Source: a virus (lineage: Duplodnaviria > Caudoviricetes). From it: a stretch of 64,000 bases of DNA. The stretch is taken from IMG/VR virus record IMGVR_UViG_3300021387_000075. One strand, 5' to 3'. Made by a program: the position numbers and the translations under genes. Positions 6,999 to 34,570 of this stretch are shown here, one piece after another (positions within the stretch are counted from its first letter, which is position 1; the number at the start of each line of letters is the position of its first letter). The notes under the pieces were generated by a model. The model worked only from the letters and a program-made list of their open reading frames with translations. It was not told the origin of the DNA and searched no databases.

Positions 6999-9900
6999 AT
7001 GGCTAATGTTACCGTTGATATATAGGCAAGGGTGGTAGGCTATGAGCAAAGTATAAAGTCATTGCAAGCCGCATTGGCTAAAGTGGATCCAGGTTCTGAC
7101 ATAGGAAAAAGTATTACAAAAGCAATGGAATAGGCGCAGTCTTAGGTGAAAGCATTAAGTAAAAATATGTTTCCTAAGGCATCGAGTGATACTTAGATTG
7201 ATGCAATTATTGAAAAAACCAATAGAGCTGGAGAGGCTATTTAGCAAGTAGCTTCCTTATTATAGAATGTTCAAGTTAGTGATTTAAACTTAGGAGCATT
7301 CGGAGGAGATATTGAAAATTTTAAAAATTAGATCTCTTCTTTATAGACAGAATTAGATAGTAAATTAAATGCTGGGATAATAAAAGCAGTAGGTGAATCT
7401 GAATAGCTAAAAAATGTATTTAAAGAGCTAGGTACAGATTTATCGAAAGCGACTGGCGCAACTTTATTGGAAGATTTGTCGAAAGGTGCATAGAAGGCAT
7501 CTGAAAATGTAGCTGATTTAGAAAAAAAATTAGAAAAAGCTCAAACATCAATTAATAATTATTAGACAATAGATAGCACATTAAAATCTTCTAGGCTTGG
7601 TACTCTTGAAGGACGTACTGCATTAGATGATGAATTAAAAACTATTACAGGTAATTATGACGCAGTTTTTGAATAGTTAAGAGCCACAATGATAAGTGGT
7701 TTTAGCAAATTAAAAACTGATACTAAGTTAGACACAGATGGATTATTAAAAACATTTTTTTCTGATTTAACTCCTGAGAATATTTAGAGTCATATATAGA
7801 ATTTATTTAACACGCTTTCGTCTCAAGGAGTATTTGGAGAAAATGAGAAACGTAAATTCTATGAATCAATTTTTGGCGGTAATGATGAATATAATACTAA
7901 TAATATTAATTTATTAACTAAATCTATTGGATTGGATAAAGCTTATTAGCAATATAAAGCTTAGCTTCAAGAATTTTATCGGAAAATTGCTAATGATATT
8001 GATGGTAAAGATTAGGCGCAAATTAATCGTTTAATTAGTACAGACTAGTTAGACAAGGCTGTAAGTGCGACCACCAAAGCATTAGATAATGCTTATAGTA
8101 AAATATATAATAGCATTAAACAGAATTAGGAAAAACTTAATAGTGCTTTAAGTGATAAAGACAATATAGTACTTTAGCTTAATACAGCACGCTAGACACA
8201 AGATACATTTAGTTCTGCTGAATAGTCATTAAGATAGGAAATTGAAGCCGTACGTTAGGAAAATAAGAATTTAGAAAATTAGATAGCTTAGTTACGTGAA
8301 TAGTTAAATCAAAAATTAAGCGGCGAAGTTGGAAATATTCGTAATGTAGGCACTACTGAAAATCGTAATGTCGGATAGGGTTTCCGTGAATCCTTAGAAA
8401 TAAGCGAAGCCTATAAAAATTAGTTGGCGCAAGTTGCCGCGAAAGAGCAAGCACTAGGAAAGATATAGGGTGTTGTTTAGCGCTGGTTTAGTATTTACGC
8501 AGCAATTCGGATGGTCCGTTAGGCCATTGATTCTGTAATTTCTACTGTTAAAGAATTAGATGCTACTATTACAGAGATTGCTATTGTTACTAGTATGGAT
8601 TAGAGTGAATTATGGGATTAGATGCCTAAATATACTCAATTAGCACGTGATTATGCCGCTTCTATTAGTGGTGTATATCAAGTATCTCAATTGTACTATC
8701 AATAGGGTTTACAAACAGCCGATGTAATGGCATTAACTGAATAGACTTTAAAAATGGCTCGTATATCTGGACTAGATTATGCATAGGCAACCGACTATAT
8801 GACTAACGCGGTTCGTTCATTCAAAATGGAAATGACGGATGCTTAGACAGTTGTTGATGTTTATTCAGCTATCGCCGCGAGTTCTGCTACTAGTGTAACT
8901 GAATTAGCAAGTGCAATGAGTAAAACCGCATCATCAGCCGAAGCAGTTGGAAGTAGTTTTTAGAATACTACTGCTATGATGGCTGTAATGATTGAAGCTA
9001 CTCGTGAGTCTGCAGAAAATATTGGTTCTGCTATGAAGTCTATTATTAGTCGATATGGTGAAATGACTTCTGATCCTTCTAAGTTAGTAGACAGCGAAGG
9101 ATAGGAAATGAGTTTGAACCGTGTTGATAAAGCTTTATAGACAGTAGGAATTAGTATTCATAATGCTGAAGGAGAATTCCGTAATTTTGACGAAGTTATT
9201 ATGGAATTAGCAGAAAAATGGAATACTATAGATACTAATACTTAGCGTTACATTGCTACTATTATGGCTGGTAACAGATAGCAATCACGTTTCTTAGCAT
9301 TAGTTTCTTCTTATGATAGATTGAAGGAATTAAGTACGGAAGCAGCAGAATCTGAAGATGCTTCTTAGTTACAATTCTTAAAAACTTTAGATTCTGTTGA
9401 AGCTAAAACGCAATAGCTTCAAACAAGTATTTAGGCGTTATATGTAAATAGCGGGTTAGAAGATTTTTATAAAAAAGTATTAGATTTAGGCAATAGAGTC
9501 TTAACTACTTTTGATTAGTTAGCAGAGAATTAGGGTTTGGCATTAACGGTAACTAAAATAGGAGCAAGCTTTGTTTCATTAGCAACCTTAGTTACTAATG
9601 CTTTTAATATTATTAAAATGTCATTTTCTAGAACTAAGTTACAAATTATGGCTGAGAGCAAAGCTGCGGCCTTAGAACGTGAATTAGATGCTGCGAAATT
9701 AGCAGCTTCAGAGTCTGCTTATGCACAACAAAGTGCTTAGAATTAGATCAATAGTGAAGATTCGATTACTGCAAATAAGCGAGCTGAAATAGAAGAAAGA
9801 ATCAGATTAGCTAAAAAAGAAGCACAAGAAAATAGTGGTTCTATATTTAATTCTAAATCTGTTCTTAAAAAGACCGGGGGTATGGTTGCTTCTGCCGCGG

Positions 9901-12900
9901 GTTTAGCATTGACTTCTATTGCTGCCCAAAAAGATGTAAATGAAGAAAGATAGACTAAAGCTTTGATGACTGCAATAGGATCTGCTCTTTCTGGAATAGG
10001 AACTTATGGAATGATTGGAGGTATTCCAGGCGCGATTGTTGGTACTATTACAGCCATTCCGGGTATTGTTGAAGCAATAGGGATGTCTACTGAATCTGTT
10101 ACCGATAAAGTAAATCGTTTGAATGCTGCGGTAACTGAAGCTTCAAATAAAACTATTTTAGCTCAAGATGAAGTAAAAACTTTAGAAGATTATAAAAATA
10201 AATTAATTGATTTAACAAGTAAATAGTATGATAGTGCGGAAGCAAAATAGGCATATTTGGATTTAAATAATGAAATTGCTAGTAATTATCCGGAATTAAT
10301 TAGTTATATTGATGAAGAAGGTAATAAAATTATTGCTTTAGGAAATATTTATGATGAACTCTATGAGAAGAAAAAATTAGCTTATGCTGAAGCGGCGAGA
10401 GATGAGGGAAGAGCACGTATCGCCGCAGCTTCTGATGGAAATACTCGGTTGACTAATGCTGGCATAGAAGCACCTTCAAGAAAACTTGATACTTTTTCTA
10501 CCTATATGGCTACAGGAATTAATGCCGCGCAAGAGGCACTTTCTTTCGGTGCTTCGCATATTACTGGATATGGACATACTGATAAGTTTAGTGTTATTAG
10601 TAAAGAAAATGAAGCATATAATTATTTAAGTGATTAGCTTGCTTCTTCTGGTTTTGGTAATATTTTGGAAGCAGCAAAAAGTAATACTTTCGGCGGCGCA
10701 TCCGGCCTTGATATTTATAAGGCTTTATTTGGTAGTAAGTTTAATAAATTTTTTAGTTCTTTTAACCCAGAAAAAGTTTCAGAAATTTTTAAGAATAATC
10801 AATTAGAAGAATTATATTAGTTAGATTCATCTGATAGCGGTTTAACTTAGTTAGGATTTATTATTGATAATTTAATAGCCGCGGATTAGAATTTTCAATA
10901 GGCTAGTACTATTATTAGTCAAATTTTGGGCGAGACTGTCACTATTGATAAAGATTTATATGAATATCGTAGATAGGCTTCGTCATTGCCAGCTGAAGGA
11001 ATTGAAAAAATTATTAAAAATGAAAATAGAAATTTATTTAATAATTTTTCTTCTTTGGATGGTGTGAAATTTTCTTCTGCTTTTGATTAGGAATATTTAG
11101 CTGCAAAATTTCAAGATTCTTGGAAAGCATATGAAGAGCAACATGCAAAAGAATATACAGATGCTATTACTGGAGAAATTGATTATACTGCAATGTGGGA
11201 TGCTTTTTCCTAGAATGCAGAAATTTCAATATAGGAATTAATTCGTGAATATTCTAATACTTTATCTAATTTAGATTTGGGTATTTAGTCTACTCTTGAT
11301 AAATATTTTAAATCACCTTCTGATTATAGTTTGAACGATTGGACAAAATTATTAGGAAAATTAAATTTAGATGAAGAAACTTACAAATTTATGCAGTCTT
11401 ATATTACTGATAGAATTGTTCCTACTATAACTAATTTTAATTCTTCTTTTAAAAACTTAATGGCTAGATATCATATAGATGAGAACTTAATAGATTATGA
11501 AGAATTATCTGAAGGAATAAATCCATAGTTTTTATCTGGAATGTATGAATAGTATGAAAAAGTATTTAGAAACTCTGCTCTTTCTTCTAGTTCTAAGGAA
11601 GATATTATTACAGATTTAAATTCTATATATTCATATATTGGCAGCTTGGATGAAGAATTACGTACTCCTATTTTAGCTAAATTATCTACTGCTGATCTTA
11701 CTTCTCTTTCTGGTATTCATAATTTTATATCAGGAATAGAGGCTATCGAGGGATTTAAATTAGAAGGAACGAATTTAGATGATAGTTTAGATAAATTAAA
11801 ATAGCATATTAAAGTTAATATTCCAACAGAAATTAGTTAGATGTTGAATTCTTATTCTGATGGCTTATAGTCTTTAAGTGATCTTTTAAGTAAAGCTAGT
11901 AAAGGAATGAGCCTTAAAGATGCTATAAAAGCAGTAGATTAGTTTGGAATTACTTTAGCCGATTTTAATTAGATTGGAGAAAAATTTTATTTAAAAGATT
12001 TAACTATATTAAAAGATTAGTATATTAAAAATAATAATGAATATTATACCGAATTATTATAGCAAATTAATGATTAGGCTGATTTTTACAAAGAAAACTA
12101 GCGTATTGGTAAAACAGATTATTTTGATTTTACAAAATATAAGGATTTACCCACTCCAGAGGAAAGACGAGCTTATTATGAAGAATATGCTGCAGAAATA
12201 TAGGAAATGGTTCCTCTTTTAAATACTTTTGATAAATTTGATACAACTGTAACAAATAGTACAGATACTAGTTTAGAATAGTTATCTAAAGGAATGCAGT
12301 CTAGGGTATTAAATAGACAAAAAGATTTTAATTTAAATAAATTATTAACTAATAAAACCGCGGATGATTTTACAGAAATATCCAATTTTATTGATGAAGA
12401 ATATGCTACATTGCTTTCCGAAAGTGGAATAAATGTCGAATCTTTAAAAAACGATATTAAAGCTTATTTAAATAATGCTAATGAAGGAGAAACATTTTCT
12501 GAATACATTCGTCGTACTTTAGGAGAATAGTTAGCAAATGTTTATAATGCTTCCGAAGAAGCAGTAAATTATTTATTAGCATCAACTGCTATTTCCCAGG
12601 GTAATTTAGATAGTTTATTAGATTTAGTCTTTGGAAAAGAAGGCGCAGAAGGAGCGATTAAAGTTGATCGTGAAACTATTAAGAATTAGATTGCTATTGG
12701 AGAAACGGATAATTTACCGAAAGAACTTCAAAAATATTCTATTCTAATTCAAGATACTTTTAAATCTGTCCGTGAAACTACAATTAATGCTTTAATATCT
12801 GCGATTGGAGATGGATCTACTTAGATTAAAGTTACAGATTTAAATAAAGGGATTTTAGAATAGCTTAAAGGCAAGCAATGGATTGAAGGCGATATAAAAA

Positions 12901-15900
12901 CTGGCGAATATGTAACGATTGCCGCGCAAAATCTCCTGGATAACGCTCAAGTATTTGAATAGTATATTGTTTCTTCTTTTAATACTAATGCAGAACGTAT
13001 TAAAGCTTTAACAGAAACCCATAAAAATTAGTATGCTAATAGTCGAGTAGAAAATTATGGTAAGGTTGCTGGCGTTGAATCTTTCGCCTATGAAGATTTG
13101 TTAAATTATATTAGTAAAACTGAGGGATTTGGTTTTTTAGATGAAAATAGTATAGAAGATGAAATAACGAAGTTTGGTTTAGCCTTTGATTCTATGGGCA
13201 ATGTTATCATTGAGAATTATGATTTATGGATTACTAAATTAGAATCAGAAGTTAAAGTATTAGCTGCTAGTGGAGCGAAGTAGCAAGAATTAAATCATGC
13301 TCAAGCATTATTAGAGAAAACAAGAAATGCACAAGAATAGGCGATCGCTACTGGTTTTGATAATATACTAAAGGATTCTTCCAATATTAGTATTGAATCA
13401 GTGGAAAAACTAGCTAATGCGCTTAACATGAGTTATACAGAATTAACTGGTTATATAAATGAAGCTGGCGAATATGTAGAAGGATATTTAACTAGTAATG
13501 GGAACGGTACTTATTAGTTAGATACAAGCAAACTTCCTGATTTATTATCAAAATTAAATGGTAAAGTATCTCAAGCTACTGCTGAAGCAATTGAAAAATC
13601 CATTAGCTCTATCGGTGATGCTTACTTATCTAATATTAAAAATACGACTTCTTATACTACAAAAGGAGCTTCCTCTTTAGCTGACGTAGAAACATTTAAA
13701 TAGTCTTATGCTGATATTGTCGGAAAAACATTAAGCGCTGATGCGTTTAGTTATAATTCAGCCTTATAGTCTTTCGTATTAGGCGAAAGCTACATGGATG
13801 AGTATATTAATGCTTAGCGCGAAAAGCTACGTCAATTAAATTACAGTGAAGAATTCATTGATTAGTATATTAAAGATCAAACTGATCGCGCTATTCAAGA
13901 CAGTATTGCTCTGGATGGATTCTTAAATGCGACTACAAGTACAGAAAGAAATGATGAAGCCAATAAGTTAATTTAGTAGATTAGGGGATTGAGTAATTAC
14001 AAAGATTTATTTACTCAAGATTCTTCTCTTATTCAAAAATTAAAAGATCATCATTTTGATGAAGAGAGTTTTAGTCGAGATTGGGAGCAATATTAGGAAC
14101 AATATGATTTACTAATTCTTGAAACTCTTGAATCCGGCGGCCAAGCCGCGGTTGATTTATTAAAGCAAATTAAACCCGATGCTTCTTAGGAAGAATTTAA
14201 GGCAGCATTTAATTCTTAGATAAATAAATTAAATGATGCTATGTCTCAAGTGGGGGATTTAGTCGCGGGTTAGTTTATCGGCACAGAAGGAAAGTTGTAT
14301 GATATACTTTTCCGCGCAGGCGCAGTTGATGTTAATGGAGTGGTACAGGCAGGTTTCAGCATGGTCGAGGTTTATGCTGCAATTTATGCTGAAATGTCCA
14401 GAACCGCTGGCGCAACCACTGCTGGCCTAAATGATGCCTATGCACAATTATTAACTGCTCAAGATCAGACTAATATTGATATTACTGAGGCATTAAAAAA
14501 TGGTAATGGTATGTCTTATGCTGATTTTGGTAATCTTCTTGCTAAATATGATATTAAGTTTGAAGATTATATGACATAGCATTATGATGCTGTTATGCGC
14601 GATGGTTTTGGTAATATTCGTATTACTGATTGGAATGCATTTGCAAAGAGTATTTGGGGAAACAATTTAGATTAGGTTAAAAATACGTAGGAATATATCA
14701 GTGCATTTAAGGCATATAATGATGGGCTTATTGAGTTAAATAAAAATACAGAAGATGCTATAGTTGAAGAAATTAAGTAGATTGAAAGTGCAAAGACAGG
14801 AGATTGGCTAAATTTAAGTGAATTTGGAACACAGTATTATAATGCTCTGGAAAAGTCTACTAATATAAATGATTATCTTAACAAAGGCTATGGCTTTGGA
14901 CTAGCTGCTGGAATGGCTGACTCTGCAAAAAAAGATAATGCAAAGATTTTTGATAATTTAAATTCTTAGTTACATCAATGGGGTGCATCATTTGAAGATG
15001 GTATTCTTAAAATTGGTGATAACGCTAATTTACTAGGTATTGCTTAGACACTTGAGTAGGCCGCTCAATAGGCAGGTTTAGAGCTTGGTAATGGATTAGA
15101 AGAAGTTAAAGATGCTGTATTAAATGTACTTAAATCTTATACCGACGCCATTATTCAGGGTATTAAAGGCGGATTATCTAATACCGATGCCTCTAATTTA
15201 ATTAAAATGGCAGATAATTTAGGAGTAAAAAATCTGCATTTTGAGCAAACAACTGAGGGACTAAAATTATCTCAAGCGTCGGCTATTGAGCTATATCAAA
15301 CTATTAGTAAAATTGATAATCTTTAGGGGCAATTAGTATTTGATGAATTATCTAAATCCTTAGCAGAAAATAATGAGAATTTTACTTCTACTAATGCATT
15401 ATTAAGTCATATGGTTGATTTACGCAAGAAACTTGCTGGTGTAGATGGTGAGATTTCAGATGCTCGTCGTAAATAGTATGAAGCTGAATTAGAGGTTGCA
15501 AAAGAAATTGTTGCTGTACGTAGTGGCGGAGAGGATGACTCTTTTAACTTTATGGATAATGATATTCCTGGTGGCCAAAAGAATATGATCAATTATGCAA
15601 AGAATTGGTCAGAAGCTATGAAAGCCATTAATAATGCATATAAAGTTAAAAATACTAAATATCGTGACGCTACTAAAAATACTGCGACTGGTTATATGGA
15701 TTATACTGATTTCTATAATATTGTTAATGAACTTAATAATATGGCCGGTTTAATGGGAAAGACAGTAACAGTAGGTAAGACTATTTAGGGTGAGGCATTA
15801 ACTTTAGATGGTTCATTAGAATCTGCGTCTGCATTAATTACTAAGGGAATTGAAACAATTACCGCTGTAGATACTGGCGACATGATGGTCAATATCGGCG

Positions 15901-18900
15901 CATTAGGTATCAATCTTTCTAAAGGAGCGAGTGATTTAAACAGCGGTATTTAGGATGGCATAAAAGAAGTAGCAAAAGCATAGATTTCTGCTTTAGATGG
16001 CATGATTGCCATGTTAGAACTTATTGTCGCTATGGAATCTTTAGGTGATATAGCCGGAGAAGATATGACCATTGATTTACCTGATATTGTAGTTGATGAT
16101 GATAATGATGGAAAGTTTGATAGATTAACTGATAAATATAAAGATTGGTTGACTAAATTTGATTAGCTATATGAAACTAATGAAGATATTAGAAAAGTAG
16201 TTGATGGCATTAATATCAATGGCATGACTTGGCGTGATTGGTTGAAAAGAGACGCAAAAGAATGGTCTAATGCTGATGCCTAGATTTTAGATGCTTTATA
16301 TTAGGCTGCAATTAGTACTGATTGGAATTTAGATGATATTGGAGGCAGCTTACAGAAACTTCTAAATAGTGGAAAATTTGGAGAATTAACGGATAGCTTT
16401 ACAATTGATATTGGTGATATTACCTATACAATTTCAAATGGAGCCGTAGTTGAAGTAGCTGATTGGAGTAATGAGCAAACTTAGAATGTACTAGCATAGT
16501 ATAAGAAAGCTACAGGAAAAGATGATTAGCATGCAAAACAAGATATAATTTCTGCAATTGAAAGCTATTTAAAAGGTAAAGGTACCGGTAATAAAGATAT
16601 TGAAGTTAAAGATGTTATTAAAATTAAACACTCTTCAGTTATTAAAACAAATAAAGAAGGCAAAGATGTAGTAGTTGTAGATGGTAAAGAATATACAGAA
16701 GGGAGTACTCAGTGGCAAGCTACATTAGAAAAGACTATTCTTAGTGATTAGGATGGAATTGATCCTAAAAATATTCATACTGATTATAAGACAGGAGAAG
16801 CTACAGCAACAGTAACATATGGAATAAAGACTTCAACTAAATTTACTGTAGATGCAGATGCTGATAGTGGAGAAGTAACTTGGAATGTAGCAGCAGATGA
16901 TCCCTTAGCTAAATATGCTGATCCAAATAAGAAATATAGTTCTTAGTCAGAAATATTAAAAGATATTTATAAGAATTTAAATACTGAAGCAACTTCTGGC
17001 AATACGGAAGCATAGGAAATATTAGGAAATGATTCCGGTAGTTTTGAAAAATTTATTTATGCTCATTATGGAATTCACCTTAAAGTTAAGACTGAAGTAT
17101 ATAAAGATGGCAACTAGGTAGAAGATCCCACTAAAGATCCTAAATTTAGAGATGCCGCTAAAAATGCTTTAAATAATATTGAAGATGCCATTAACACAAA
17201 ATTATCAGATAATGGCGAAGGTAAAACTACAATTACATTAGATAATGGATATACTATTCAAGTTGATACGGATGATATTACTGTCGATGGTGACGTTAAA
17301 CCTGAATTGGTAGCAGCTAAAATTCAAGAAAGTATGGGTTTAGACGCAGCTTTAAGAGATACAATTTCTGCCGGTATTAAAGACGCATTTATGTCCTTGC
17401 CCGAAGCCATTAATTCAATCGAACCTACTAAAATTACTTCTGTATCCGAAGCTTTAAATGGCATTACTACAGCACTTAGTGCAGTAGTTGGAGATTCTAA
17501 TTGGGCTGCTTTAATTGCTTAGTTAGAGAATGTAGCTAATGCCGCGGCGAATATTAAATTACCGACTTTTGATGGAAACAATGGACCGGAAACACCTTCA
17601 ACACCGACACCTAGTAGTACTCCTAGTGGTTAGAGCGCTCAGACACCGGTGCCAGGCCCACCCGTGAATATGGGCGAAGCCGAAGGTGCGGCAGATGAAT
17701 CACCCGAAATCGGTGAAAATATTTCATTAGGTTTAGCTGAAGGACTTACTGCAGCACTATCGAGTATTCTTTCCGCAGTTTCAGATATAGCAACTTAGCT
17801 TATTACAACATTAGAAAATTAGACAGGCGTACATTCTCCTTCTACTTTAACTGATGCAATTGGCTAGAATATTGATGCTGGCTTAATACAAGGCTTAGAT
17901 GCATAGTAGGGAGCAATTGTTGAAAAAGGTACAGCTATTGGTACTGCAGTAATTGAAGCTATTAATACAGCCGTTACTGAAGGTATGACAACTTTATCTG
18001 AAGGTATTGCAGAAGCAGTTGAATCTGTTGACAAATCTTATACTGAATTAGAAACAAAGACTGAACAGGTTGCGGGCTCTATTCGTTCACACTGGGAAGC
18101 CTTAGTCAACCAGATTACTGCCGCGGTTACATTAATTCAAGGCTTGGTATAGAGTTTATAGGAAAAGATTTCTATTACTTGGACTATTAGTAGTGGAGAT
18201 GGAAAGACGGATTTATCGGGTTCTGGTAGTGGCATTGATAAGAATGCGGAACGTGAGGTTACTGCCTTAACTGAATATATAGATTAGACATTGGCTTCCA
18301 TGGACAAGCTAGAAAACGGTACCTATAAAGTAACAATGCCTGATCTTCAAGTAAGTGTTGGTAAAATTACTCCTGATGTATCAGCTGCTGAAATGGCTGA
18401 TGTAGATACCTTTGCAGAGCCCTTGACGGTTTAGTTCGCTAAAGCTAAAATTAAAAAATTAGCAGATCCGTTGGATTTAACAACCATTCATGATTTGGGC
18501 TAGTAGTCATTACCCGAAGATGCATTCATGACAATAAGCGATGGTGTAAAAGCTGTTCCGACTAGCTTATCACTTTCTCTTGACGGTGCTTCGAATGTTA
18601 GCATAGATGAGTCTACTCCTGTTGTTCTTAGCGAACCAATTAAAATTCCTGCAGAGGTAGATACAACTGATGCAGAAACTGATATTTCTACTTTAAAGAC
18701 TAAGATTGGAGAAATTAAATAGGAAAGTACGCCTAAAATTTTAGTTGATATAAATCCTGCTATAAGAGTACTTAACGCGCTAATTCGAGCAATTGATAAG
18801 ATTAAGTAGAAAAAGGTTCCTCAAATTACAATTGATACAGCAGTTGCTAAGGCTAATTTAAATGAAATTATTGACATATTAGATACAATTATTGAGAAGG

Positions 18901-21900
18901 CTTAGTCACTAATAATTGCAATTGGTACTGCCGAAGAAACAAATAAAACTTCTAAGTTAATTGAAACAATAATGAATGATCTTATTATCATTGACGATAA
19001 AAAGAATATTCCAATTTCAATTACATTGGGCGATGTTGATGATTTAATAGATAAGTTATAGAAAATTGCAGCGGCATTAAAAGAAATTGCTGGAAATGCT
19101 AATACACCTATTGATATAGGGGCTCCGGAGGAAGAAACACCTAAGGGGAAGGAAGGGGAGACTCCTGAGAGTGAAACACCTGAGGGAGAAAATCCTGATA
19201 CCAATGATTAGAATAATACTAATTAGCATCGTACTCAAAGTGAAGAATTACCTTCTCAATCAGAAGAATCTTCAGAACTAACACCAATAAAGAAAATTAC
19301 AGATGAAAGCGCTGATGCATTTGCAGAAGCAACTAGTAAAGCTGCAGAAGGTTTAGATCAACTTAGTAATGCAGGGAATAATGCCGAAAATGCAATTACA
19401 GATATGACGACTGCTAGCCAAGCTGCAAATGAAACATAGGCAACTACGCCTTAGACTGAAGAAACAGTAGAAAAAGTAACGGCTGAACAAGCGACAACGT
19501 CGACATTAAAAGCAGAAAATGCAGAAGCAGCACAAGCTACCACAAAGACAATTAATGCAGAGTCTGGTACAGCAGACAACGTTACTGCTGAAAGTGTAGA
19601 TACTGGTGGAGAATCGGTCAAACTATAGGCCGAGGTGGATACTTCAGCCGCTAACTTAGAAGGATTAAAGGCTAAATATGAAGCTGAAATTTCAAATTAG
19701 CCAGGCGATATGGACGGACTAACAGCACGTTACACAGCAACAGTTTCGGGCCTGCCACCAGATCATATTGAAGGCACTGTTCATTATAGCGCAACATATG
19801 ATGGTGCTAAAGCTCATGGTAACTTTGGTCTCGCCTCTGGCACTCTTGGTCATATAACCGGTCCTGCTCATGCTCGAAGTACTCTTATGGGCGAGCTTGG
19901 TCCAGAACTTGTAGTATCTAATGGTCGTTACTTCGTAGTTGGTCAAAATGGCGCAGAAATGGTTGACCTAGACAAAGATGCAATTGTCTTCAATCATTTA
20001 CAAACTGAGCAGCTTTTAAAGAATGGGATGTCTAAAGAACGTGGCCGTGCTGTTACCAACGAGCGTAATGCGGTTGCATTTGCTAAAGGTAATATTAGCG
20101 GTGGCCCGGCTATGGCATCTGCATCTGCAGCCCTGTCAGCCTTAAAGCAACTTCGCTCTATGTGGCAATCTCTATTAAGCGCAACTGCAAAAGACCTTGC
20201 TGGTCTCGGTGGATCCGGCGGTGGTGGCGGTGGCGGAAAAGATAAAGGAGGTAAGGGCAGCGATGCTAGCCGTAAATCCTTTATTGAAGACGTTGAACGC
20301 TGGTATAACTTAATGCAAGAAATTGCTAAGTTGGAAAAGGTAATTAATCATGAAGAAACTCTTCGTGCGAAATTAGAGGGCGATTTGCATAAAAATGGTA
20401 GTGCTTATTATAAGAGTTAGAAAGAATCGCTTTCTGCCATTCAGAGTGAGATTAAAGCTCAAGAAGAATTAAATATTTCTCGGCGTGAATACTTTAATCA
20501 GAGGCGCAAGCAGCTAAATAAAGATAATGGACCATTTAATCAACTTTATGAGTTTGATGAACAGGGACAATTAAAGCATAAAAATAATACAAAGATTAAA
20601 GGTTCCAAAGCAACTAGTGGATATGAATTCTTAGCGGACTTAATGGCGCTAGATCCCAATACTGGTAAACCTAAATATACCGTTGAATAGCAATATAAGA
20701 TATTGAAAAAAGCTGGTTTCGAGAAGTATATGAAATATGACTCTTCCGGTAATGAAATTAAGCTTGGTGGAACTGATAGTGATGATGGTCCATCTGAAGA
20801 TGATTACAATACTTATTATAGTAGCATGGTACAGGCTTTTTGGGATCGAGTGGAAGCGCAGAAAACCGAAATGCAAACATTATATGATAGTGTAGCTGAA
20901 GGTGAAAATAATTTACTTGAACTAGAATAGCAGCGCAATGAACTCTTACAAGCCATGTATGACAATTAGAAAGAACTAGAAAATTCAGTTTTAAACGCAA
21001 TTGAGGACATGAAGCAACGTGAAATTGATGCTTTATAGGATGAGCGTGATAAGCTAGAAGAGGCTACTGGCAAGTATATTGAAGGTTTAAGCGAAGCATT
21101 AGATAAAGAGCGTGAGATGTATGATACTCAATAGAATCAAAACGAGCTTGATACCAAGAAACGCCGCTTAGGTATCTTATAGCGGTCAGGCGCGAGCGCA
21201 GAAGATATTTATTCGCTTCAAAAGGAAATTACCGAATCTGAAAAGAATATGTATTTCGATACTCAACAAGCGCAGATTGACGCAATTCAGTAGGCTTCTG
21301 ATTTGGAAATTGAACGCTTGGATAATCAAATTTAGATTATGCAAGACACGCTAGATTTCTAGAAAGAAATGGGATTGCTATGGTATTAGGTTTATGATGT
21401 AATGGGTAAATCTAATGCAGAAATTACTCAGTTTGTAATGGGTAATGATTCATAGTTCTGGAGCAAATCTCCATTAGAAAGTGCCCAAACTTATGAAGAT
21501 ACTATGTTTAAGGCAAGTCAATGGACTGATTTTAGAAAGGATCAAGTAGCTATGGCTACAAATAAGAAAATAGATGAGTAGACTGAAGCATTAAAAGAAG
21601 CTTTATCTTGGGATTAGAAAACTTAGACTGCCGATGCCTTTAATACCTATGCGGGAACAATGGCTAAAAAGCATGGTGAAGATTGGGATAAAACTGGAAA
21701 ATATAAAGATATCTTTGAAAAAACGTTTAAAGACACTGGTGATAGAACTAAGGCCGCAACCGCTGCATCTGAAGCTTTTGAAAAAGATGAAAAGTGGAGA
21801 TAGCGTGAAAAAAATGGTGGTAAGAAATTTATTGGTACTAAGGAATATGAATATATTCCTATTGATGATACTTATCACTGGACTTATAAATATAAGTATT

Positions 21901-22700
21901 AGAAGTATGGCGGCCTAAGTGCTGAGCATTAGGGTAAAACTGAATGGTTCTTTGTTTCTAAGAAAAAAGAAAAGCATGAATGGGAAAAAGGTAAGTGTAA
22001 ATTATGTAAACGTAAAAAGCCGAAGGAAACCGCATCATCTAGCGGTGGCGACAACGACTGGTCACCAAGTAATTGTAATGACAGCTGTTCAGGGGCTTGT
22101 AAGGGCTCTGGAGAAGGTGGAACGGGATGCTCTAAGAATTGCGCGAATGGGTGCAGTGGAGGATGTAAGACGGGATGCTAGAACACATGTACCAATTCAT
22201 GTAAAAACAGTTGTTAGGGTGGTCCTAATGATAAAGATAATCCTTCTAAATATGCTGGTACTAGTAATACATGTAAAGCTGGATGTATAGGAACATGTGC
22301 GGGATATACTGGTTCAAAAGCATCCGGCGGATATGTAGGCCACGGTATTTATGAACTTGGTGAGCGAGGTACAGAAACAGTTCTTACTGCCTAGCAAACC
22401 CGTGTTCTTCGTAATAATATTCTTTCTAATAAACCAAGTTCTCTTGTATCGTTATTAAAAACTTATAACGAGGGCTTCTCAATGAACTAGAGATATGGTG
22501 TATTAAAAAGCGTTGGTGAGAGTATATCCTCTACAACTAATAATACATCTGGAGGAATTACTATTGAAAATGCCACGGTTAATATGAATATCCAAAAGAT
22601 AGCCAATGATTATGATGCTAAGCGCGCTGGCGAACAGGCATTAAATGAAATGCTTCGTATTGCTAATAAAACAAGCGCGGCAAATAACATAAGGAGGTAA
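6999..22700 (+). CDS. Giant tail tape measure protein, about 5,233 aa (TAG-recoded)
   Basis: Twelve track fragments (9537, 9963, 10257, 11331, 12294, 13098, 14295, 15552, 17307, 18528, 19710, 20703) share one frame. The gaps I translated contain only TAG stops (not every gap was checked). TP901-type core at about 8.5-9.4 kb (VKELDATITEIAIVT, LYYQ*GL, ATRESAENIGSAMKSIISRY) and C-terminal GELGPE/GERGTE motifs; ends TAA 22698-22700. Confidence 0.85.
22074..22298 (+). repeat. CxxxC repeat inside the tape measure C-terminal region
   Basis: CNDSCSGACKG...CSKNCANGCSGGCKTGC*NTCTNSCKNSC*GG...TCKAGCIGTC; 14 Cys, mostly every 4th residue. Confidence 0.85.
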
Positions 22701-24570: not shown

Positions 24571-27500
24571 ATGGCTGAGACTTATAATACAATACGCAGC
24601 TATGAAATTTCTATTTGGACGCTTTAGGACAGGTTTTTATCTGTCCTGAAGTGGGCCAATATGAGTTAGAAAGGGCAATTACAAGATCCGGAAATGACTC
24701 TGCGCGATGACGGTACGGAAGAATTAACTTTTACAATTCCGAAGTTTTATTGGAGTGGGCCGGATAAAATTCCAAACCCTATGTGGCTGCAAGTAAAAAA
24801 AGAGCCAATTGAGGCGAATATGCACAAGTTAAAGGTTATCTTTAACAAAAATGATGAAAATGAACGAGTATTTGAATTTTTAGTTGTATCTGTTGATAGC
24901 GGGCACACTAAGGATGAAGTTGATATTTCTGTAAAAGCAGAAGGGTTAGCATTTCATGAACTTGGAAAAGTCGGATATAAGATTTCTTTATCTCAAACTA
25001 ATTACGAACTCGACTTGGAAGAATGGATTAATAATGGAATGAAAGGCCCGAAACCTGAGGAAACAATTTAGTATTGGAATGATAAGCTGTTTGTAGATGC
25101 ACGCGGAAATTAGCGTACTAATTGGACTTATGAAGTACAAATGGATTGGTCTTCATATAGTCAAGGAAATAGCGCATTAAAAGATCCGCATAAGGTATAT
25201 GAGGATGAATATGTATCTTCATGGCAAGTGGATGAAGAAGATGATACTAAATTGCTTCCTAAATATGTAGAAGGCTATAAAGAAAAGTGGCGGCCAATAG
25301 AAGTCTCAGCTAGTAACTTATATAATATTACATAGCAAATTGCTGAACAATTTGGAGTCTTTTGCCGCTATTAGTATGATTATGATGAAAATTATTAGAT
25401 TATTGGAAGACGAGTTATCTATTACAATAATTATATTAAAGATAAAGAAGGACATATAGATTTAACCTATCCTTATTCATCCACTAGTATTACTCGTAGC
25501 GTAGATAATAGTTAGGTAACAACTAAATTATATGTTCAAAATGTTGATAATGATACGATGGGTACTATTTCTATTATGGAAGTAGACGCCAATAAAAGTA
25601 AAGAAGACTATTTGCTTTGCTTTGATTATATGCGTGATGTAGAAGGTGTAAATGAGGATTAGTATGCTGAAATTGCTAAGTATGAAGCATTAATGCATTA
25701 GTATAATGCTAATCTTATTAAGATACAAGAGCGCATTAGGGTAATTAGTGATTAGTTGGTTGAATTAGAGGCTAAGGCTAAAGTATATGAAAATAGTCTT
25801 GTTGAAGATAGTGAGAGAATAAATGAAGCTCACGCTGAATATATGGGCCTAACAGATGGTCAAGGAGAAGTTAAATATGATACGTCTCGTACTGTAATGG
25901 AAGATAAAACATATGGTAAATATGTTAATCTTTATGTTAATGGTGTAATTCCTAATACGATACATTTATATAAAGAAGCTAATTATACAGCTATGAAAGA
26001 TGAAACATAGTATAAAGGCTTTATTGAAGTATTCACTCCTGATTTAGATGAAACTAAGCAATATGCAATTAGATTACGTAATATTTAGTATGCTGGATTA
26101 AATGCAGGTGATACTATTTATTTAAGCGCGAATCGAAGTCCATATTCTTATTATAAAGATTTAGAAACTTTGTGGACGAATCGGGAAGGGATGGACAAAG
26201 CTAATTTGGAAAAAACAAACAAAACAGTAGAGTTATATAATTGGTATTTAACCGGTTCGCGCGTTGGGTATGGCAAGGTTGGATCCGCAGAAGCGGATGG
26301 ATCTTATGAAGGATTAGCTATTACCGCGCCATTTGATGATCTAGAATTATTAAATAATTTTGCCAATACTCATCCGTTTGTAAGTTGGTCAGTAGATCAT
26401 ATGCGCGCAGGTGTTTCTGAAGATACGAACTATGATGTTGATGCGTTTTTAAATCACGATATTTCTTCTATAAGTGCTGATTTATATTATTTCCAAGACT
26501 ATTTCCTTGATTTGAAATCTTTGTTAAGTGATAAGTTTGAGCGCATGATGGGCCCTGCTTTACGCGAAGGCTATTGGCAACCAGATGATTATCACGATTA
26601 TGGAGATATGTATGAATCTACATTTAAATTAAGTGCTGCACCGGAGGAAAATATTGATTCTAATGACTTAAAGGGATTTATTGAAGGTTCTCTAGTACAA
26701 GCATTGGCGCGAGATGAACAATTATCTCCGCATATGCAAGTTATTTGGGATTGCAATAAGTATTATGATAATGAAACCCCGTTAGTCTATGAATCATCTA
26801 TTAGTGGCAGAAAAGATTAGCATTTAATTGTAGATATAAGTGAAAATTTAGATTTTGTAAAAGATCATTTGGATGACTTATGTTTTATTTATAGTGATCG
26901 CTCGTGTGTATAGACTATTTATGATATTCAAGAGAATAAAGTACCAAATTTTGCTCAGTATTTAAAGAGTTTTCATAATGGCATGTATCCAAATACTGAT
27001 AATAGCGCCGCTGAAGCAGAAACTAGTCATGATTATTATAATAAATTAGTACGTTTAATTGGACTTATATCAGATACAGAAGCGGATGAGAAGGCAAATC
27101 TGGTCAGGGAATATTTTAATGCGATAAAAGCATTGAAAACCACGGCAAAAGAAGTACGTGATGGTAATTAGGAATCGGGAAAAGAAGTGCCTGGCTATGG
27201 TTCAACGCCTTATTATATAGTAGATAAGATATTAACATTAGAAGATTTAACTGCACCTGTTGAAACATTAAAGGCGATTATTGAGCGACTTAGCAATATT
27301 AGCAATGAACTAAGTAAATTAGAAGATGCTTATTCTTCGAAGCTCATGAGCGCGAAGACTGATGAAAAAACTTTTATCGAAGCAGAATTAGCGAAAATTC
27401 AAGCTGCACATGAATATTTAGCTTATGTTGATAGTCAAGTTATGTCTGGTTAGAATACAGATATAACTATTGATGATCCCAATTCAGAAAATTATACTAC

Positions 27501-30500
27501 AGGAGATAGAGGCTTATTGACCATTATGCGTCAATACTTAGTATATCTCCAATGGATTGAATCTCTAGAAAAAAACCGTTTCTAGTATTATCAAATAAAT
27601 TCTGGATGTGAACTAGGATGGCTTATTGATACAAATTCCGAATCTACTTCTGACGAACCCAAGATAAAACGTATTCCAGTATTGATTATTACTGGTGCAG
27701 ACGTTTTAGATGATGATACTATTCGCTATTTAGTAAAAGGAGAATATGCGATTTATAATGGAGAAGGACTCTAGCAAGAAACAACCTATTCTAAACCTGT
27801 TGCAGAAAAGTATCGTCCATTCTTCGGATATTATACTACCACTGAATAGAAAGATAGTACTACTGGCTCAACCTATACTGAAAGGATACTTAATTATGGG
27901 CCATCAATTAACGATAGTCAATATATTGGTGCCGGTAATGAAGATTCTTAGTATTTTACTCGTAATTTAACTAAACATTTATATGACACTTTTAAATAGC
28001 CTGATGCTGATGAATATCGTTATCGTCGGGTATACCCTCGTATTTATTTTAATACGCTTAAACTTAAATCTGAATCCTCTGACATTCATTTGAGTATGAA
28101 TGAAAAGTTGTTAGAAGATTTCAAAGACTATTCTCTTGTTCCAGATGATAGATCAAAAGGTCAAAAACTTCAAGGTATTGGCTATTATTTAACCATTAAA
28201 CCGCATTTGCTATTTAAAAATGGTGAAGCAGAAAATGAATTTAAAATAGTATATACTTTATCTAATGCCGATATTTCTATCTATTTGGATGCTTTAAAAG
28301 TCTTGCGCGAAAATGCTTATCCAAAAGTTTCTTATAATGTGGATGTAAGTATTTTAAATCCAAAGTTTATTGCTACGGCTTATGATCGTTTAAATCAAAT
28401 AGTTCATATTAATGATAACGATTTACAGTTAGAAGATGCTAACGGATATATTTCATCAATTACAATGAAATTAGATCATCCATGGGAAGATTAGATAGAG
28501 ATTAAAAATTATGAGACTAAGTTTGAAGACTTATTTACTACAATTGTTGCTTAGACAGAAGCAATGTAGCGTAGTTAGTAGGGCTTGAATAGTGTATTGT
28601 AGGCTTTCTCGCGCACTACTGGCTTACTTGATAAGGACGTATTGGAACGCAGCTTGGTAAGTGCTAACTTAAAATTAAAATTCGATACGGCTGGCCGCGT
28701 AACATCAGATGAAAATGGTATTATGGCTATATCTGAAGATGAGAAAAGCGCAATTGCTTTCCGCCCAGGTGGTATTTTTACAGCGTATGAGCATGATACT
28801 AATGGAGAATGGATTTGGAATACTGGTATTTTACCAACAGGCATTAGCGCGAACTTTATTAGCGGTGGATAGTTAGATATTAATAAGATTAAATTATACG
28901 CTGGTGATTAGTTACGATTCTAGATGAATAGTGATGGCTTGTTTGCTTATAAGTCTTTCTCTACTAATCACGCAAAGAAAGATTTCGCGGTCAAACAAGA
29001 TATAGCAGAAGAAGATATAGCGCCGGAAAAGACAGATTTTAAGCAATATGTAGTCTTTAATTCAGAAGGTTTATTCTTAACCGCGAAGCAAGGTGCGCTA
29101 TATAATACGCAAAAAACTAGTACAAGCGATAATGAAATAAAATATCAATACGCGATAACTGAGAAAGATATCAATCGTGTTGAAATTAGCTGGGATGGTT
29201 TAAAATTACGTAACTGGGCTGGTGAGGAGGTATTCTATGCTGATCCAGATACTGGTAATTTAACCCTTAGCGGCACAGTTAAAGCAGATGGAGGTAACAT
29301 AGCTGGCTGGGAAATTTTAGGTAATGTCTTGTCGGGCGATCATATTAATTTAATTTCTCATACGAGTGATGAGGGTAATGATATAGCGGGCATTGTGCTT
29401 ACTGATCAACCAAAGTTACAAGATACTAAATTAGATCCTTATACTGGGAAAATTTATTTCGTATGTGAATGCTTCATTAATGGAAAAAAGACAACTGTTT
29501 ATTATCCTGATCCAGTTATTGGCTCTTTAAGTGTTAAAGTAAAACAAATATATAAAGACGGTAATGTTGTTGCTTATGTTACTCCCAAGTATATCAAAGC
29601 TGAGACAATAGCTACTGGAAGTAGCACTGAAGTACTTGATAAAGAGACAAAAGACCCTGTAATAACATACGCCGCAGATGCCGAGACTAAGTTATATATT
29701 ATGGCTGATGCGGGTTTAAATTAGTATGTTTATTCAGATAATAAAAAATTAGAGTATGATGGGGATAATACTTTAACTTCTTATTGGTATACACGCATGA
29801 GTAACTAGGAATCATTAATTACAAAAATAACTGTGCCTGCTATTGTGCCATATGATTTAAATAGTGATACCACGGTAGTTTTAACACCAGTCGGTGAATC
29901 AAAAGTAACATTCCAGGTTCAAGCAAGTACTGGTAAAACTATAATTCATAGCGGACAAATTGGCGGTTTTACAATTATGGATGATGCTGTTGGAACATTT
30001 ACTGGTGGTAAAATTGCCAATAGTGAATTTGGAACAGATAATAAAATTAATGGTATTAACTTAAGCTAGTTATTCTATGACGTTACAACTGATTCAACAA
30101 CAGGAATTGTTAGCTTAAAAAGAGTAAATGGTAACAATGTAAATTTTAATATTGCCGCTTTACAAGCTTATAAAGATATGCTAAGTAAAGTGGCATCTAT
30201 TAAAATTAAATTTAAAGTTTCTAGCGATGGTTAATAAAATGGCCAGACCGTATAGTAATATACGGAACAAACATGGTGAACCGGTAAATGCCGGGTGTCG
30301 AATTAACATTTTATTGTAAGAATAGGAAATGATTCTGCATAATTCGGCTAACGGGGAACCCTACGTCTATGGATATGGCAATCCCGTGCCAAGCTTAATT
30401 GAAGGTGTAACGACTATCCAGCTAGGAGTAGGGTTGTGGTGAAATTCCGCAAGCCGAAGCGCCATGCCCCAGAAATGGGTGAAGATATAGTCTGATTCAT

Positions 30501-31016
30501 AAAGAAATTTATGAGAAATTGCAATATTTAACTGCCACAGCGATAAGTGCTGATGGGACCGAATTTAAATAGACAGTATTAGCAGAAGATAATGGTAAAA
30601 GCAAAATAAAAATAAGTAAGTATAAGGGAAAAACATTAAAGTTTACTGCAACAAATGATTATGGTGCAAAGATTACAAAAACATATAAAATTACAGATGA
30701 TAGTACTATAAGCGGATATACAAATGCTTGGACAGAAGGATGCTCTACTTGTGAAGGCCAATGCGGAAAGAACTGCGCTAATGAATGTGCGGGATTATGT
30801 GGAGGTACGTGTAAAGGAGGATGCAAAGGTGGGTGTTCTGGCTGTGGCAATTAGTGTTCCACAGGATGTACTGAATCATGTTCTTCTGGCTGCGATGGAC
30901 AATGTAAAGGAGATTGTGGTTGGGACTGTTCCCATGAGTGTAGCAGCGGTTGTGGAAATAGTTGTCGTCGTGGTTGCGGTAACAATTGTGATAGTTCAGT
31001 TGACAATCATGATTAA
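24571..31016 (+). CDS. Tal-like tail-tip protein, about 2,051 aa after splicing (exons 24571-30231 and 30522-31016; TAG-recoded)
   Basis: ATG 24571 with AGGAGG SD; one frame broken only by TAG up to 30231. Motifs SNLYNIT*QIAEQF, NYETKFEDLF and GISANFISGG*LD. Removing the intron gives the in-frame join KVSSDG|QYLTATAIS, ending TAA 31014-31016. Confidence 0.75.
30232..30521 (+). ncRNA. Group I self-splicing intron (ORF-less, 290 nt)
   Basis: Exon ends UGGU pairing with GCCA (U.G at the 5' splice site). P2 CCGTATA-GTAA-TATACGG; P3 CATGGTG/CGCCATG; P4 CGGGGA/TCCCG; P7 GACTAT/ATAGTC with AAGATATAGTC; P9 TCATAAA-GAAA-TTTATGA; terminal G at 30521. Confidence 0.9.
30741..30989 (+). repeat. CxxxC repeat, 22 Cys in 83 aa, at the C-terminus of the tail-tip protein
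   Basis: CSTCEGQCGKNCANECAGLCGGTCKGGCKGGCSGCGN*CSTGCTESCSSGCDGQCKGDCGWDCSHECSSGCGNSCRRGCGNNC. Confidence 0.9.
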
Positions 31017-31061
31017 AAAAAATAAGCCCGGACTCTTAATGAGTCCGGGCCTTTCTTTTTT
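31015..31061. terminator. Bidirectional terminator between the convergent arms
   Basis: A-run, GCCCGGACTC-TTAAT-GAGTCCGGGC, then T-run. Confidence 0.85.
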
Positions 31062-31446
31062 ATTCAAATTGCAGGAAGGGTTCAAGGAATGACGCTTCAG
31101 CAGGGGTAAATTCTAAGTTTTCAATATCCTCTACAGGAATAGGTTTAGCTTCAATTTCAACTTCTTCCATAATTAGCTTATTGATTTCATCCATGTAAGC
31201 TTGCATATTTTCTTGAGTAAACTGATATTCGTTTTTCTCGTTTAATTCAAATTCTCCATCTTCTTTACGCTTAGCATATTTTTCAATTAGCTTTAGCCGC
31301 GTATCATTGTAAGATGTCAGAACTTCTTCTAGTTTCTTTAACAAGCGTGCTACTTGAAAAGCGGTTCGTCCTTTAAGTACCATTCCGCTCAATTTCTGTA
31401 GTGCTTCTTGTCCTTCTACAACTTCTTTTAATGTAATTTTCATCAT
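31060..31446 (-). CDS. Hypothetical protein (DUF1617-like, tentative)
   Basis: Helical protein MMKITLKEVVEGQEALQKL...; ATG overlaps the resolvase TGA. Confidence 0.6.
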   Translation of the reverse strand: MMKITLKEVVEGQEALQKLSGMVLKGRTAFQVARLLKKLEEVLTSYNDTRLKLIEKYAKRKEDGEFELNEKNEYQFTQENMQAYMDEINKLIMEEVEIEAKPIPVEDIENLEFTPAEASFLEPFLQFE

Positions 31447-33535: not shown

Positions 33536-34570
33536 TTATCCTCCTGCATTTCGGTTATATCCGAATGTCTGAGTATCAAAAAATTCAATATAATATTTTT
33601 CAAGCTCGGAAAGCTTATCTTTATCACAATAAGTGATTGCTTCGATTGACCAATTCCAGAATCCTGTTTTTAGTATTTCATGATGTACGGCTTGATCTGC
33701 AATACTCTTAATACCAATTGAGGACTTAAAGTGGTCAGTAATTCTTTTCTTTATATCAGTACTTTTTCCGATATAAGCTTTGCCGCTATCCAAATTCGTT
33801 AGCTTATAAATTCCCGGCTCTGCTTTAATTTCTATACGCTTAAAAGTATCATCCAAATTAGGCTTAACATATTCAGCCCAAACCAATTTTGAAATAATAT
33901 CTGGATGTTGTACTTTCGCCGCGACAGTAGTAAGCAAGAATTCAATATCTTCTCGGTATTCCTCAGGTAACTATATAGTATAGAATAACTTTGCCTACTT
34001 ATCCATTTCGTATTGGAGTAAGGGTTTCCGCAAACTTAGAAAGCGTTCGCGCTATTGCTCTTCGGCAATTTGATATTCTTTAACCTTGGCTAGTGATTCT
34101 TCAATTTTGTCAGCCATCCATTTCTTAGTTTCTTCGGCCTACTTATCACATTCTTTCGTAGTTTTTTCTAACTCAGATTCCAGAAATGCTTTTTTTTCGT
34201 TAAACGTTTCATCTAATGCTGCTTGGCGTTTTTCTCGCTATTCATTCATTAAAGAATCTAATTCAGTCATTTTTTCATTTACTAGATGATTATATTCATC
34301 ACGCGCATCCGCTAGGCTTGTTTTTGCGCTATCTAATGAATTATATATATCAGTTAATTTTTGCTATTCTGTATTAACTTTAATTTGTACATCTAGTAAT
34401 TTACTACGATATTGTTCAAGTGCTTCTTTATCAAAGTTTAACTCTTCTTTAAGTTTAACCGCTTGTTCGTGATATTCGTCTAATAACTATGTATCAACCG
34501 ATTGTTTTTGATAGAGTTTATACCCCAGAAATCCAATAATAATTAAGCATAAGATTAAAACTACAACCAT
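33536..34570 (-). CDS. Membrane-anchored coiled-coil GIY-YIG nuclease, 344 aa (TAG-recoded)
   Basis: ATG 34570 with AAGGTGA SD; N-terminal hydrophobic VVVLILCLIIIGFLGY; E/K-rich coiled coil with seven TAGs; C-terminal GIYKLTN...YIGKS...LEKYYI...GYN. Confidence 0.8.

Follow-up and report, generated by a model that had tools for sequence, protein, structure and literature searches.

How does a phage tail gene continue across 290 nucleotides (nt) that begin with an in-frame stop codon? The question arises in a 64,000-nt stretch of the tailed-virus record IMGVR_UViG_3300021387_000075 (Caudoviricetes), referred to here as the window, in which a gene for a tail-tip protein (Tal, the baseplate hub) meets a TAA at position 30232 and a Cys-rich reading frame opens 290 nt further on. 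An original prediction, made from the letters alone, proposed that a group I intron separates the two coding parts and that its splicing switches between two forms of the protein. Our analysis indicates that the interval 30232–30521 on the + strand is very probably a functional group I self-splicing intron that carries no endonuclease gene, lies in the 3′ part of the Tal gene and is spliced out to give one protein of 2,051 amino acids (aa). We infer splicing because the catalytic core is intact and covarying, the reading frames are joined exactly, and the second exon is under selection. The switch between two forms found no such support.

The identity of the element was assessed with covariance models. 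The Rfam family RF00028 (Intron_gpI) matches the + strand at 30295–30514 with 56.4 bits, above its gathering score of 50 (E = 2e-13 in a 1.2-kb scan and 1.2e-11 in the whole 64-kb window), and is the sole RNA family matched at E ≤ 0.001 within the window; the search with group I models that had been proposed gave a match above the cutoff. Related copies at five loci of other phages (L002, L003, L004, L006 and L007) score 53.3–55.3 bits. The default gathering-threshold Rfam scan of the full window returned no match, despite the intron lying about 6 bits above the gathering score, presumably an artefact of the speed filter. The intron is visible only in local or more permissive Rfam scans, and default-only scans of other windows may hide similar introns.

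The boundaries of the element are sharply defined. Exon 1 (24571–30231, + strand; 1,887 codons, including 34 TAG codons for Gln) ends with GAT GGT, its last base being U30231. The intron begins TAA TAA, and its first three bases close the 1,887-codon open reading frame (ORF) 24571–30234 in frame, in agreement with the length of about 1,887 aa predicted for the unspliced product. Its last base is G30521, after which the second frame opens with CAA TAT TTA ACT. In all eight copies of the intron described below, the sole in-frame join at the 3′ splice site comes after a G. No endonuclease ORF was found inside the 290 nt, all three sense frames being closed within about 30 codons; an antisense ORF of 101 aa, which appears when TAG is read as Gln, was rejected as an endonuclease candidate for want of a Pfam match. 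The description of the intron as free of a homing endonuclease therefore stands.

To define the RNA structure, six copies were aligned and folded with RNAalifold, three spurious helices were dropped, P7 was added as a pseudoknot, and pairs were counted. Across the six copies, 99.2% of the cells of the resulting 64-pair structure hold standard pairs, versus 28–42% when the 3′ partners were slid, and 18 pairs are changed on both sides, versus 1–4 in the slid controls; none of 500 shuffles attained the observed pairing or covariation. The conserved core, comprising the P3/P7 pseudoknot, P4–P6 and P8, is present and backed by covariation, with compensatory changes concentrated in P2.1, P7.2 and P9. 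In P1 (30228–30245), exon UGGU and intron UA (30228–30233) pair with the internal guide UGGCCA (30240–30245), which sets the wobble U30231·G30242 at the splice site; this pair is U·G in 6/6 aligned copies, and the GCCA guide and the TGGT exon end are common to 8/8. The P2 hairpin (30248–30265) has the GNRA loop GUAA (30255–30258) and one compensatory pair. P3 pairs CAUGGUG (30272–30278) with CGCCAUG (30460–30466) over seven pairs, one of which changes from U-A to C-G in L006. P4, ACGGGG (30351–30356) with UCCCGU (30382–30387), closes the P4/P5 domain (30351–30387), and P7, GACUAU (30412–30417) with AUAGUC (30487–30492), forms the pseudoknot with P3 through six Watson-Crick pairs that are invariant in 6/6 copies. 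Between P7 and the 3′ strand of P3 lie the peripheral helices P7.1 and P7.2 (30418–30455), with six of the eight P7.2 pairs changed on both sides; the P9 hairpin (30497–30514), with five of its seven pairs so changed, bears the GNRA loop GAAA (30504–30507). All the core elements listed in the original prediction (P1 with its U·G, GNRA loops on P2 and P9, P3, P4 and P7) are accordingly present.

Two further pairings were discarded. The Rfam alignment pairs AAUUCGGCU with GCCGAAG as P3, a helix that L004 and L007 do not conserve. RNAalifold also proposed, with apparent covariation, that positions −8 to −4 of the 5′ exon pair with the 3′ tail of the intron; the 3′ ends of the two intron types are shifted against each other by one column, and the pairing is lost in L006 and, judged by eye, in L009.

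With its P7.1 and P7.2 helices, the intron resembles subgroup IA. Its DNA matches in a phage collection are confined to core pieces of 42–82 nt in Staphylococcus and Bacillus phages, covering the P4/P5 stretch, P6 and P7. The layout recalls the phage IA2 introns of T4 td and Staphylococcus phage Twort orf142, whose features we take to be P7.1 and P7.2 between P7 and the 3′ strand of P3 and an in-frame stop near the 5′ splice site; the window intron differs in having two extra hairpins between P3 and P4. One of the hairpins in that region, of 48 nt (30299–30346), occurs only in the longer of two intron types (window, L002, L003, L010, L006 and L009), where it is near-invariant even between phages with ~40%-identical Tal genes. 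In its place, the short-type introns of L004 and L007 have a 4-bp tetraloop hairpin.

Excision of the 290 nt joins the exons codon to codon (...SSDG/QYLT..., the slash marking the junction), yielding a 2,051-aa product with the predicted junction peptide VSSDGQYLTATAISADGTEFK, although exon 2 lies in a different genomic frame. When six intron-bearing loci were spliced in silico and compared with 12 intron-less homologues, the products were collinear and gap-free at the junction; in the window, ...KFKVSSDG/QYLTATAISADG... aligns on ...LKLTYSNS-RVVATASSGLG... of the intron-less relatives. Because the spliced product aligns with intron-less homologues, the junction is fixed to the codon. This comparison answers the proposal to look for intron-less homologues in related phages, and places the splice sites at 30231/30522 exactly where they had been predicted.

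Exon 2 (30522–31016, + strand) comprises 164 codons (30522–31013) and the stop codon TAA (31014–31016), and encodes a beta-rich linker (aa 1–73) followed by a Cys-rich repeat; the 164 added residues, the 22 Cys and the two TAG codons noted earlier are all present in its translation. Between the window and L002, exon 2 differs at 32 synonymous and 9 nonsynonymous codons, and retains its length, all 22 Cys and both TAG positions, indicating that it is translated and under purifying selection. The linker and Cys-rich tail are encoded contiguously, without an intron, in at least 20 relatives, and many homologues share the order of an ...NFN(I/V)AA.QAYKD... helix, short beta-strand units (...VTLKLTYSNS RVVATASSGLG AKAEQTL...) and a Cys-rich tail with 15–49 Cys. 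These comparisons point to the linker and the 22-Cys CxxxC repeat as the normal, conserved end of the protein family. A search for fused forms among longer proteins with the non-Cys part of exon 2 found none, the fused forms having come from the exon 1 search. In a fold model of the C-terminal region of an intron-less relative (mean pLDDT 50.6), a beta-meander surrounds the junction with pLDDT 64–70, which we take as a hint.

Based on these data, we propose the following course of splicing. The 4-nt guide GCCA would pair with exon UGGU, allowing a guanosine cofactor to attack after U30231; the freed end of exon 1 would then attack after the terminal G30521, so that the 1,887 codons of exon 1 would be joined to the 164 of exon 2 to encode the 2,051-aa protein. 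For annotation, this means that gene calls cut the tail-tip protein to 1,887 aa and lose its Cys-rich end or treat it as an orphan ORF, the true product being, on this evidence, of 2,051 aa; models of host recognition or of tail-tip structure in these recoded gut-type phages should start from the spliced form.

The assignment of the host gene rests on a predicted fold together with gene order. No Pfam or PHROGs family recognises the 1,887-aa protein; in the protein collection, a search with its C-terminal 488 residues found 203 homologues. An AlphaFold model of residues 1–520, built from 22 homologues (pLDDT 70), matched gp27/VgrG-type hubs in Foldseek with probability 1.00, including the 80alpha baseplate Tal, Listeria prophage gp18, the NF5 tail-associated lysin, the Bxb1 and T5 tail tips and VgrG; TM-scores were low (0.2–0.36), as expected for a multi-domain query. 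Upstream, a tape measure gene (5,233-codon ORF at 6999–22700, PF10145, with 163 TAG codons) is followed by a 612-codon gene at the position of Dit and then by the 1,887-codon gene. The order from tape measure through the Dit-position gene to Tal is repeated in relatives, in which PF10145 also occurs. The hub-like fold matches and the gene order together support the tail-tip label that the gene had been given.

The reading of TAG bears on every gene model in this region. Under the standard code, the + strand holds many short ORFs, which become long genes when TAG is read as Gln; two tube-like virion proteins (phrog_2729) are among them. At the 34 TAG positions of the Tal gene, seven relatives have TAG 101 times and CAA or CAG 37 times, the next most frequent residue being Glu (20 times). 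Because TAG, CAA and CAG dominate at the aligned positions, TAG is a wholesale Gln sense codon in this phage, not a site of occasional read-through. The earlier notion of TAG read-through, on top of which splicing would act, is a misnomer: exon 1 has 34 TAG codons and the tape measure gene 163, and at the aligned positions relatives mostly show TAG or CAA/CAG. The recoding of stop codons in late genes is already established (bioRxiv 10.1101/2021.08.26.457843). No tRNA gene was found in the 64-kb window, so a suppressor tRNA would be encoded elsewhere in the genome; the protein collection places the Tal gene on a 179,871-bp contig, indicating a phage of ~180 kb. TAG is frequent in the low-copy virion genes of the + strand and absent from most replication genes of the minus strand.

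Several points weigh against a functional intron. The RF00028 score lies only ~6 bits over the cutoff, and the P10 pairing with the 3′ exon is weak, amounting by eye to 2–3 pairs. Splicing and its efficiency are deduced from sequence comparison. The placement in subgroup IA comes from the helix layout and short DNA matches rather than from subgroup-specific models. Finally, the window covers 64 kb of a ~180-kb genome, and an endonuclease, maturase or reverse transcriptase acting in trans may be encoded elsewhere.

The intron itself is an ordinary representative of the known endonuclease-less group I introns of phage tail genes, and precedents (PMC3706429, PMC2504315, PMC12880540) weaken the premise that introns in tail genes are exceptional. 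An endonuclease-less group I intron of 265 bp interrupts the minor tail protein gene of the Cluster J mycobacteriophages BAKA and Optimus, and in BAKA its efficient splicing was demonstrated with RT-PCR (PMC3706429). Both cases concern a short, ORF-less group I intron in a virion tail gene, with the exon ending in U and the intron in G, recognised by means of intron-less relatives; an intron sequence related to that of BAKA also sits at another site, in the LittleE capsid gene. In contrast to BAKA, the interrupted gene encodes the Tal hub of a ~180-kb phage with recoded TAG, splicing is read from sequence rather than from RT-PCR, and a single intron lineage is found, in different phages, at two to three neighbouring codons of the same gene. 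Group I introns at three positions (TMP-IVS1, IVS2 and IVS3) of the tape-measure genes of Bacillus cereus-group prophages (PMC2504315) likewise interrupt a tail-assembly gene, and that paper also reasons that reverse splicing predicts no exon co-conversion. The copies described here are ORF-less, 88–98% identical within one type, and inserted at sites within ~30 codons. In the Jug (gut jumbo) phages, short group I introns (~206 nt) are abundant, and their splicing was confirmed from metatranscriptomes (PMC12880540). Those phages are likewise large, uncultured and of gut type, with essential genes interrupted by short group I introns and intein-type elements; they have ~18 introns per genome, however, reported mainly in terL, nrdD and polymerase genes, whereas the sole intron of our 64-kb window is in a tail gene, with nrdD, Pol III alpha and topoisomerase genes uninterrupted.

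What distinguishes this intron is its distribution. The closest relatives of the window protein (P0003–P0005, 70–90% identical over the searched C-terminal region) end at ...S(S/G)DG, and at L002 and L003, the DNA of two of them, the intron occupies the same site as in the window. It also occurs in more distant relatives. A pattern scan of JGI metagenomes yielded two further copies, bringing the total to eight, from independent samples. In IMG/VR, exon 2 and the intron pattern had no match and the C-terminus of exon 1 had one weak match; no relatives were found in the species-genome collection. Six copies (window, L002, L003, L010, L006 and L009) belong to one type (W-type) of 288–290 nt and are 88–98% identical to each other, and two (L004 and L007) to a short type of 262–264 nt that is 69–76% identical to the W-type. 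In every copy the intron is preceded by TGGT, starts with TAA and has the GCCA guide.

The insertion sites of these copies differ. Site A, used by the window group, follows ...VSSDG; site B, used by L004, L007 and L009, lies 8–10 codons past it, after ...ATATSG or ...QVKDG; and site C, used by L006, lies a further 17 codons downstream of site B (about 27 past site A), after ...TINGNG. Sites A and B certainly differ, because the QYLTATAIS strand unit is 3′ of the intron in the window and 5′ of it in L004 and L007. Site C is probably distinct from site B, the alternative, which depends on the alignment, being that L006 uses site B and has a 17-residue insertion. The comparison of the window with L006 is the most instructive: their introns are 91% identical, as against 24–39% identity over the last 1,200 nt of exon 1 and 36–43% over exon 2; judged by exon 1, L006 is the remotest of the relatives, yet judged by its intron it is one of the nearest. 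The history of the intron is at odds with that of its host gene. Beside the intron, the two loci share only ATGGT upstream and C downstream, so exon co-conversion is absent.

Related introns at different sites, sharing only guide-complementary bases and no co-converted flanks, form the pattern of an intron that is, or recently was, mobile without homing, the route being a matter of deduction. Reviews cite circumstantial evidence for endonuclease-independent mobility of group I introns mainly from eukaryotic ribosomal DNA (rDNA) (PMC3984707). Related introns at differing sites without co-conversion have been taken as circumstantial evidence of reverse splicing, a pathway which, according to these sources (PMC3984707, PMC2504315, PMC1299323), has never been shown directly. 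As in nuclear rDNA (PMC1299323; PMC3984707), close relatives occur here at different sites and share only a short sequence complementary to the guide; there, however, the hosts are eukaryotic rRNA genes and here a phage protein-coding gene, and the sites here cluster within a single short stretch, a restriction that reverse splicing by itself leaves unexplained. We tentatively suggest, as a possibility that we hold with some doubt, that this endonuclease-free element relocates between UGGU sites (Gly codons in beta-turns, located where the conserved Tal body meets the variable C-terminal module) by reverse splicing into tail mRNA and copying into DNA, and that it also provides portable homology for swapping tail-tip end modules between diverged phages. 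If true, a phage structural gene would offer a natural example of a group I intron moving by reverse splicing, or of intron-mediated exon shuffling.

A competing explanation, which we likewise regard as possible but somewhat doubtful, is that the intron spreads at the DNA level rather than by reverse splicing, either through recombination during co-infection, with the intron and downstream homology as arms and exon 2 swapped as a cassette, or through breaks made by a nuclease acting in trans, such as the GIY-YIG protein encoded at 33536–34570. Recombination between homologous introns of phages is known, as in the exon shuffling of T4. The region downstream of exon 2 (terminator and gene) is 78–96% identical between loci; when the window is compared with L003, a variable exon 2 (38–70% nt identity) is flanked by an intron with 97% and a downstream region with 92% identity. 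Among W-type carriers, the first 60 residues of the Cys repeat show 52–57% identity, versus 35–47% across types, exon 1 showing the opposite order. The spliced window gene also contains 33 TGGT, yet all eight copies sit within ~30 codons, and AGT GGT pairs stand unoccupied in intron-less relatives, in L012 exactly at site B, so guide pairing alone fails to explain the clustering of sites. Moreover, no reverse transcriptase was seen among the window ORFs scanned, and the GIY-YIG gene lies 2.5 kb from the intron. Recombination, with the intron and the downstream terminator and gene as homology arms round a variable exon 2, may therefore contribute.

On the other hand, homologous or break-induced repair copies exon flanks and keeps the site, whereas here only ATGGT and C are shared and the sites differ. 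The 36–43% nt identity of exon 2 between the window and L006, far under the 91% of the intron, speaks against a recent joint arrival, and a recent transfer of the two as a single cassette was rejected because exon 2 has diverged far more than the intron has; an older co-inheritance is possible. Regarding a nuclease in trans, the GIY-YIG protein (− strand, 344 aa, PF01541 with 35 bits, seven TAG codons) has its GIY-YIG domain at the C-terminus, preceded by a long N-terminal region, a layout unlike that of classical GIY-YIG homing enzymes. Neither for this protein nor for the GmrSD-HNH protein encoded at 54590–55813 was a link to the insertion site established, and the differing insertion sites argue against site-specific homing in trans. 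Whichever route applies, one endonuclease-less intron lineage occurs in eight copies at two to three nearby codons, near 90% identity beside a host gene that has diverged beyond nucleotide alignment. What appears to be new here is this multi-site, non-co-converting spread of one intron lineage in a phage protein-coding gene, along with a corrected gene model for a large protein family.

The proposal that the intron gates the Cys-rich module, with regulated or incomplete splicing providing two functional tail-tip proteins (1,887 aa, and 2,051 aa with the module), we regard as unlikely. It draws on the TAA placed directly at the splice site, which would give unspliced RNA a cleanly ended product and which starts all eight copies; on the conservation of the intron, which is much higher than that of its flanks and could reflect selection beyond catalysis; and on a precedent for regulated group I splicing in the c-di-GMP-dependent intron of Clostridioides difficile (PMC3984707). 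However, most relatives are intron-less, with the module contiguous in at least 20 of them. Because the insertion point differs between phages (...SSDG, ...ATATSG, ...NGNG), the short forms would end at different places of the predicted beta-meander, and there is no conserved short isoform. The U and A of the TAA are part of P1 and are constrained by its pairing. Within the window, no ligand-binding aptamer or other Rfam family was found at E ≤ 0.001, and nothing credible as a regulatory RNA adjoins the intron. The comparable BAKA tail intron is efficiently spliced (PMC3706429). In-frame stops at the start of group I introns are common in bacteria and phages and have been read as a folding aid that stalls ribosomes (PMC3984707). 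Most likely, then, the TAA halts ribosomes at the entrance of the intron and lets the ribozyme fold, and the 1,887-aa product of unspliced RNA would be a by-product, not a designed isoform. The isoform switch is thus unsupported, and no new regulatory principle is established by this locus.

It is very improbable that the intron is a dead relic, with the gene ending at 30234 and 30522–31016 either encoding a small Cys-rich protein of its own or being a remnant in decay: gene callers do annotate the 1,887-aa ORF alone, and in two relatives exon 2 is preceded by an in-frame ATG made of the final three bases of the intron, where a separate ORF is called, but all catalytic-core helices are intact and covarying, exon 2 keeps its frame, length and 22 Cys with a 32:9 synonymous excess, the triplet preceding it varies (TTG, TCG, ATG, CTCG, AAG) so that no start codon is conserved, promoter-like sites are no commoner than in shuffled sequence, and the beta-strand unit that lies downstream of the intron in the window lies upstream in L004 and L007, from which it follows that the two exons encode one continuous domain.

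The module that the spliced gene gains is itself distinctive. The CxxxC repeat (30741–30989, + strand) contains 22 Cys with a spacing of 4, giving 19 CxxxC. TIGR04114 (tSAM_targ_Cxxx) scores 17.6 bits on exon 2 of the window, under its cutoff of 20; relative P0021 passes with 32 bits, and many relatives carry a precomputed PF27846. The module thus resembles the Cxxx-repeat family of radical-SAM targets, short of proven membership. No radical-SAM enzyme was found among the 32 window ORFs scanned (64 kb of ~180 kb). Its distal place on a trimeric hub invites the speculation that it forms a tip structure stabilised by metal or disulfides. The tape measure has a CxxxC repeat of its own near the C-terminus (21990–22298), with a weak TIGR04117 match (21.5 bits against a cutoff of 50), so the repeat is common to two tail-tip components.

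Beyond the repeat, many homologues end in a Hint/intein-type domain (PF07591, PF14890, PF01079) that is absent from the window protein. Its carriers include P0012, P0015, P0023, P0033, P0040 and P0045, the C-terminal ~140 aa of exon 2 at L007, and L005:7827-8849. The domain starts with ...GGGCF and ends with ...HN, after which merely 5–7 residues follow. Since these are too short for a C-extein, the domain looks like a terminal autoprocessing (BIL-like) domain and not a classical intein.

A candidate second compact intervening sequence of ~201 nt was observed after ...NVAG (GGT) in two relatives, P0008 and P0013 (L005:7680-7880 and L008:7737-7937). Its removal joins ...LTLNVAG/TKATVTATTSGG... 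in frame, as in intron-less relatives, and the apparent 'KPYIFTAP' (...FTAP) ending of the two proteins would then be read-through. The candidate has a group-I-like P4 (ACGGGGGAA...AAUCCCGU), P6, P7 (GACUG/CAGUC), P8 and a GAAA-capped P9; it had no Rfam match even at E 10, no splice-site U·G was found, and only one compensatory pair is seen in two sequences.

The tail operon faces a replication arm on the minus strand, which encodes NrdD, Pol III alpha, RecJ, DnaB, gyrase/topoisomerase subunits, an EcoRI-type methylase, GmrSD-HNH and GIY-YIG proteins, none of them interrupted. The two arms are parted by a bidirectional intrinsic terminator (31026–31062; GCCCGGACTC...GAGTCCGGGC) that ends both the tail operon and the convergent gene, and this terminator is perfectly conserved at the same place in L002–L009, however diverged exon 2 is.

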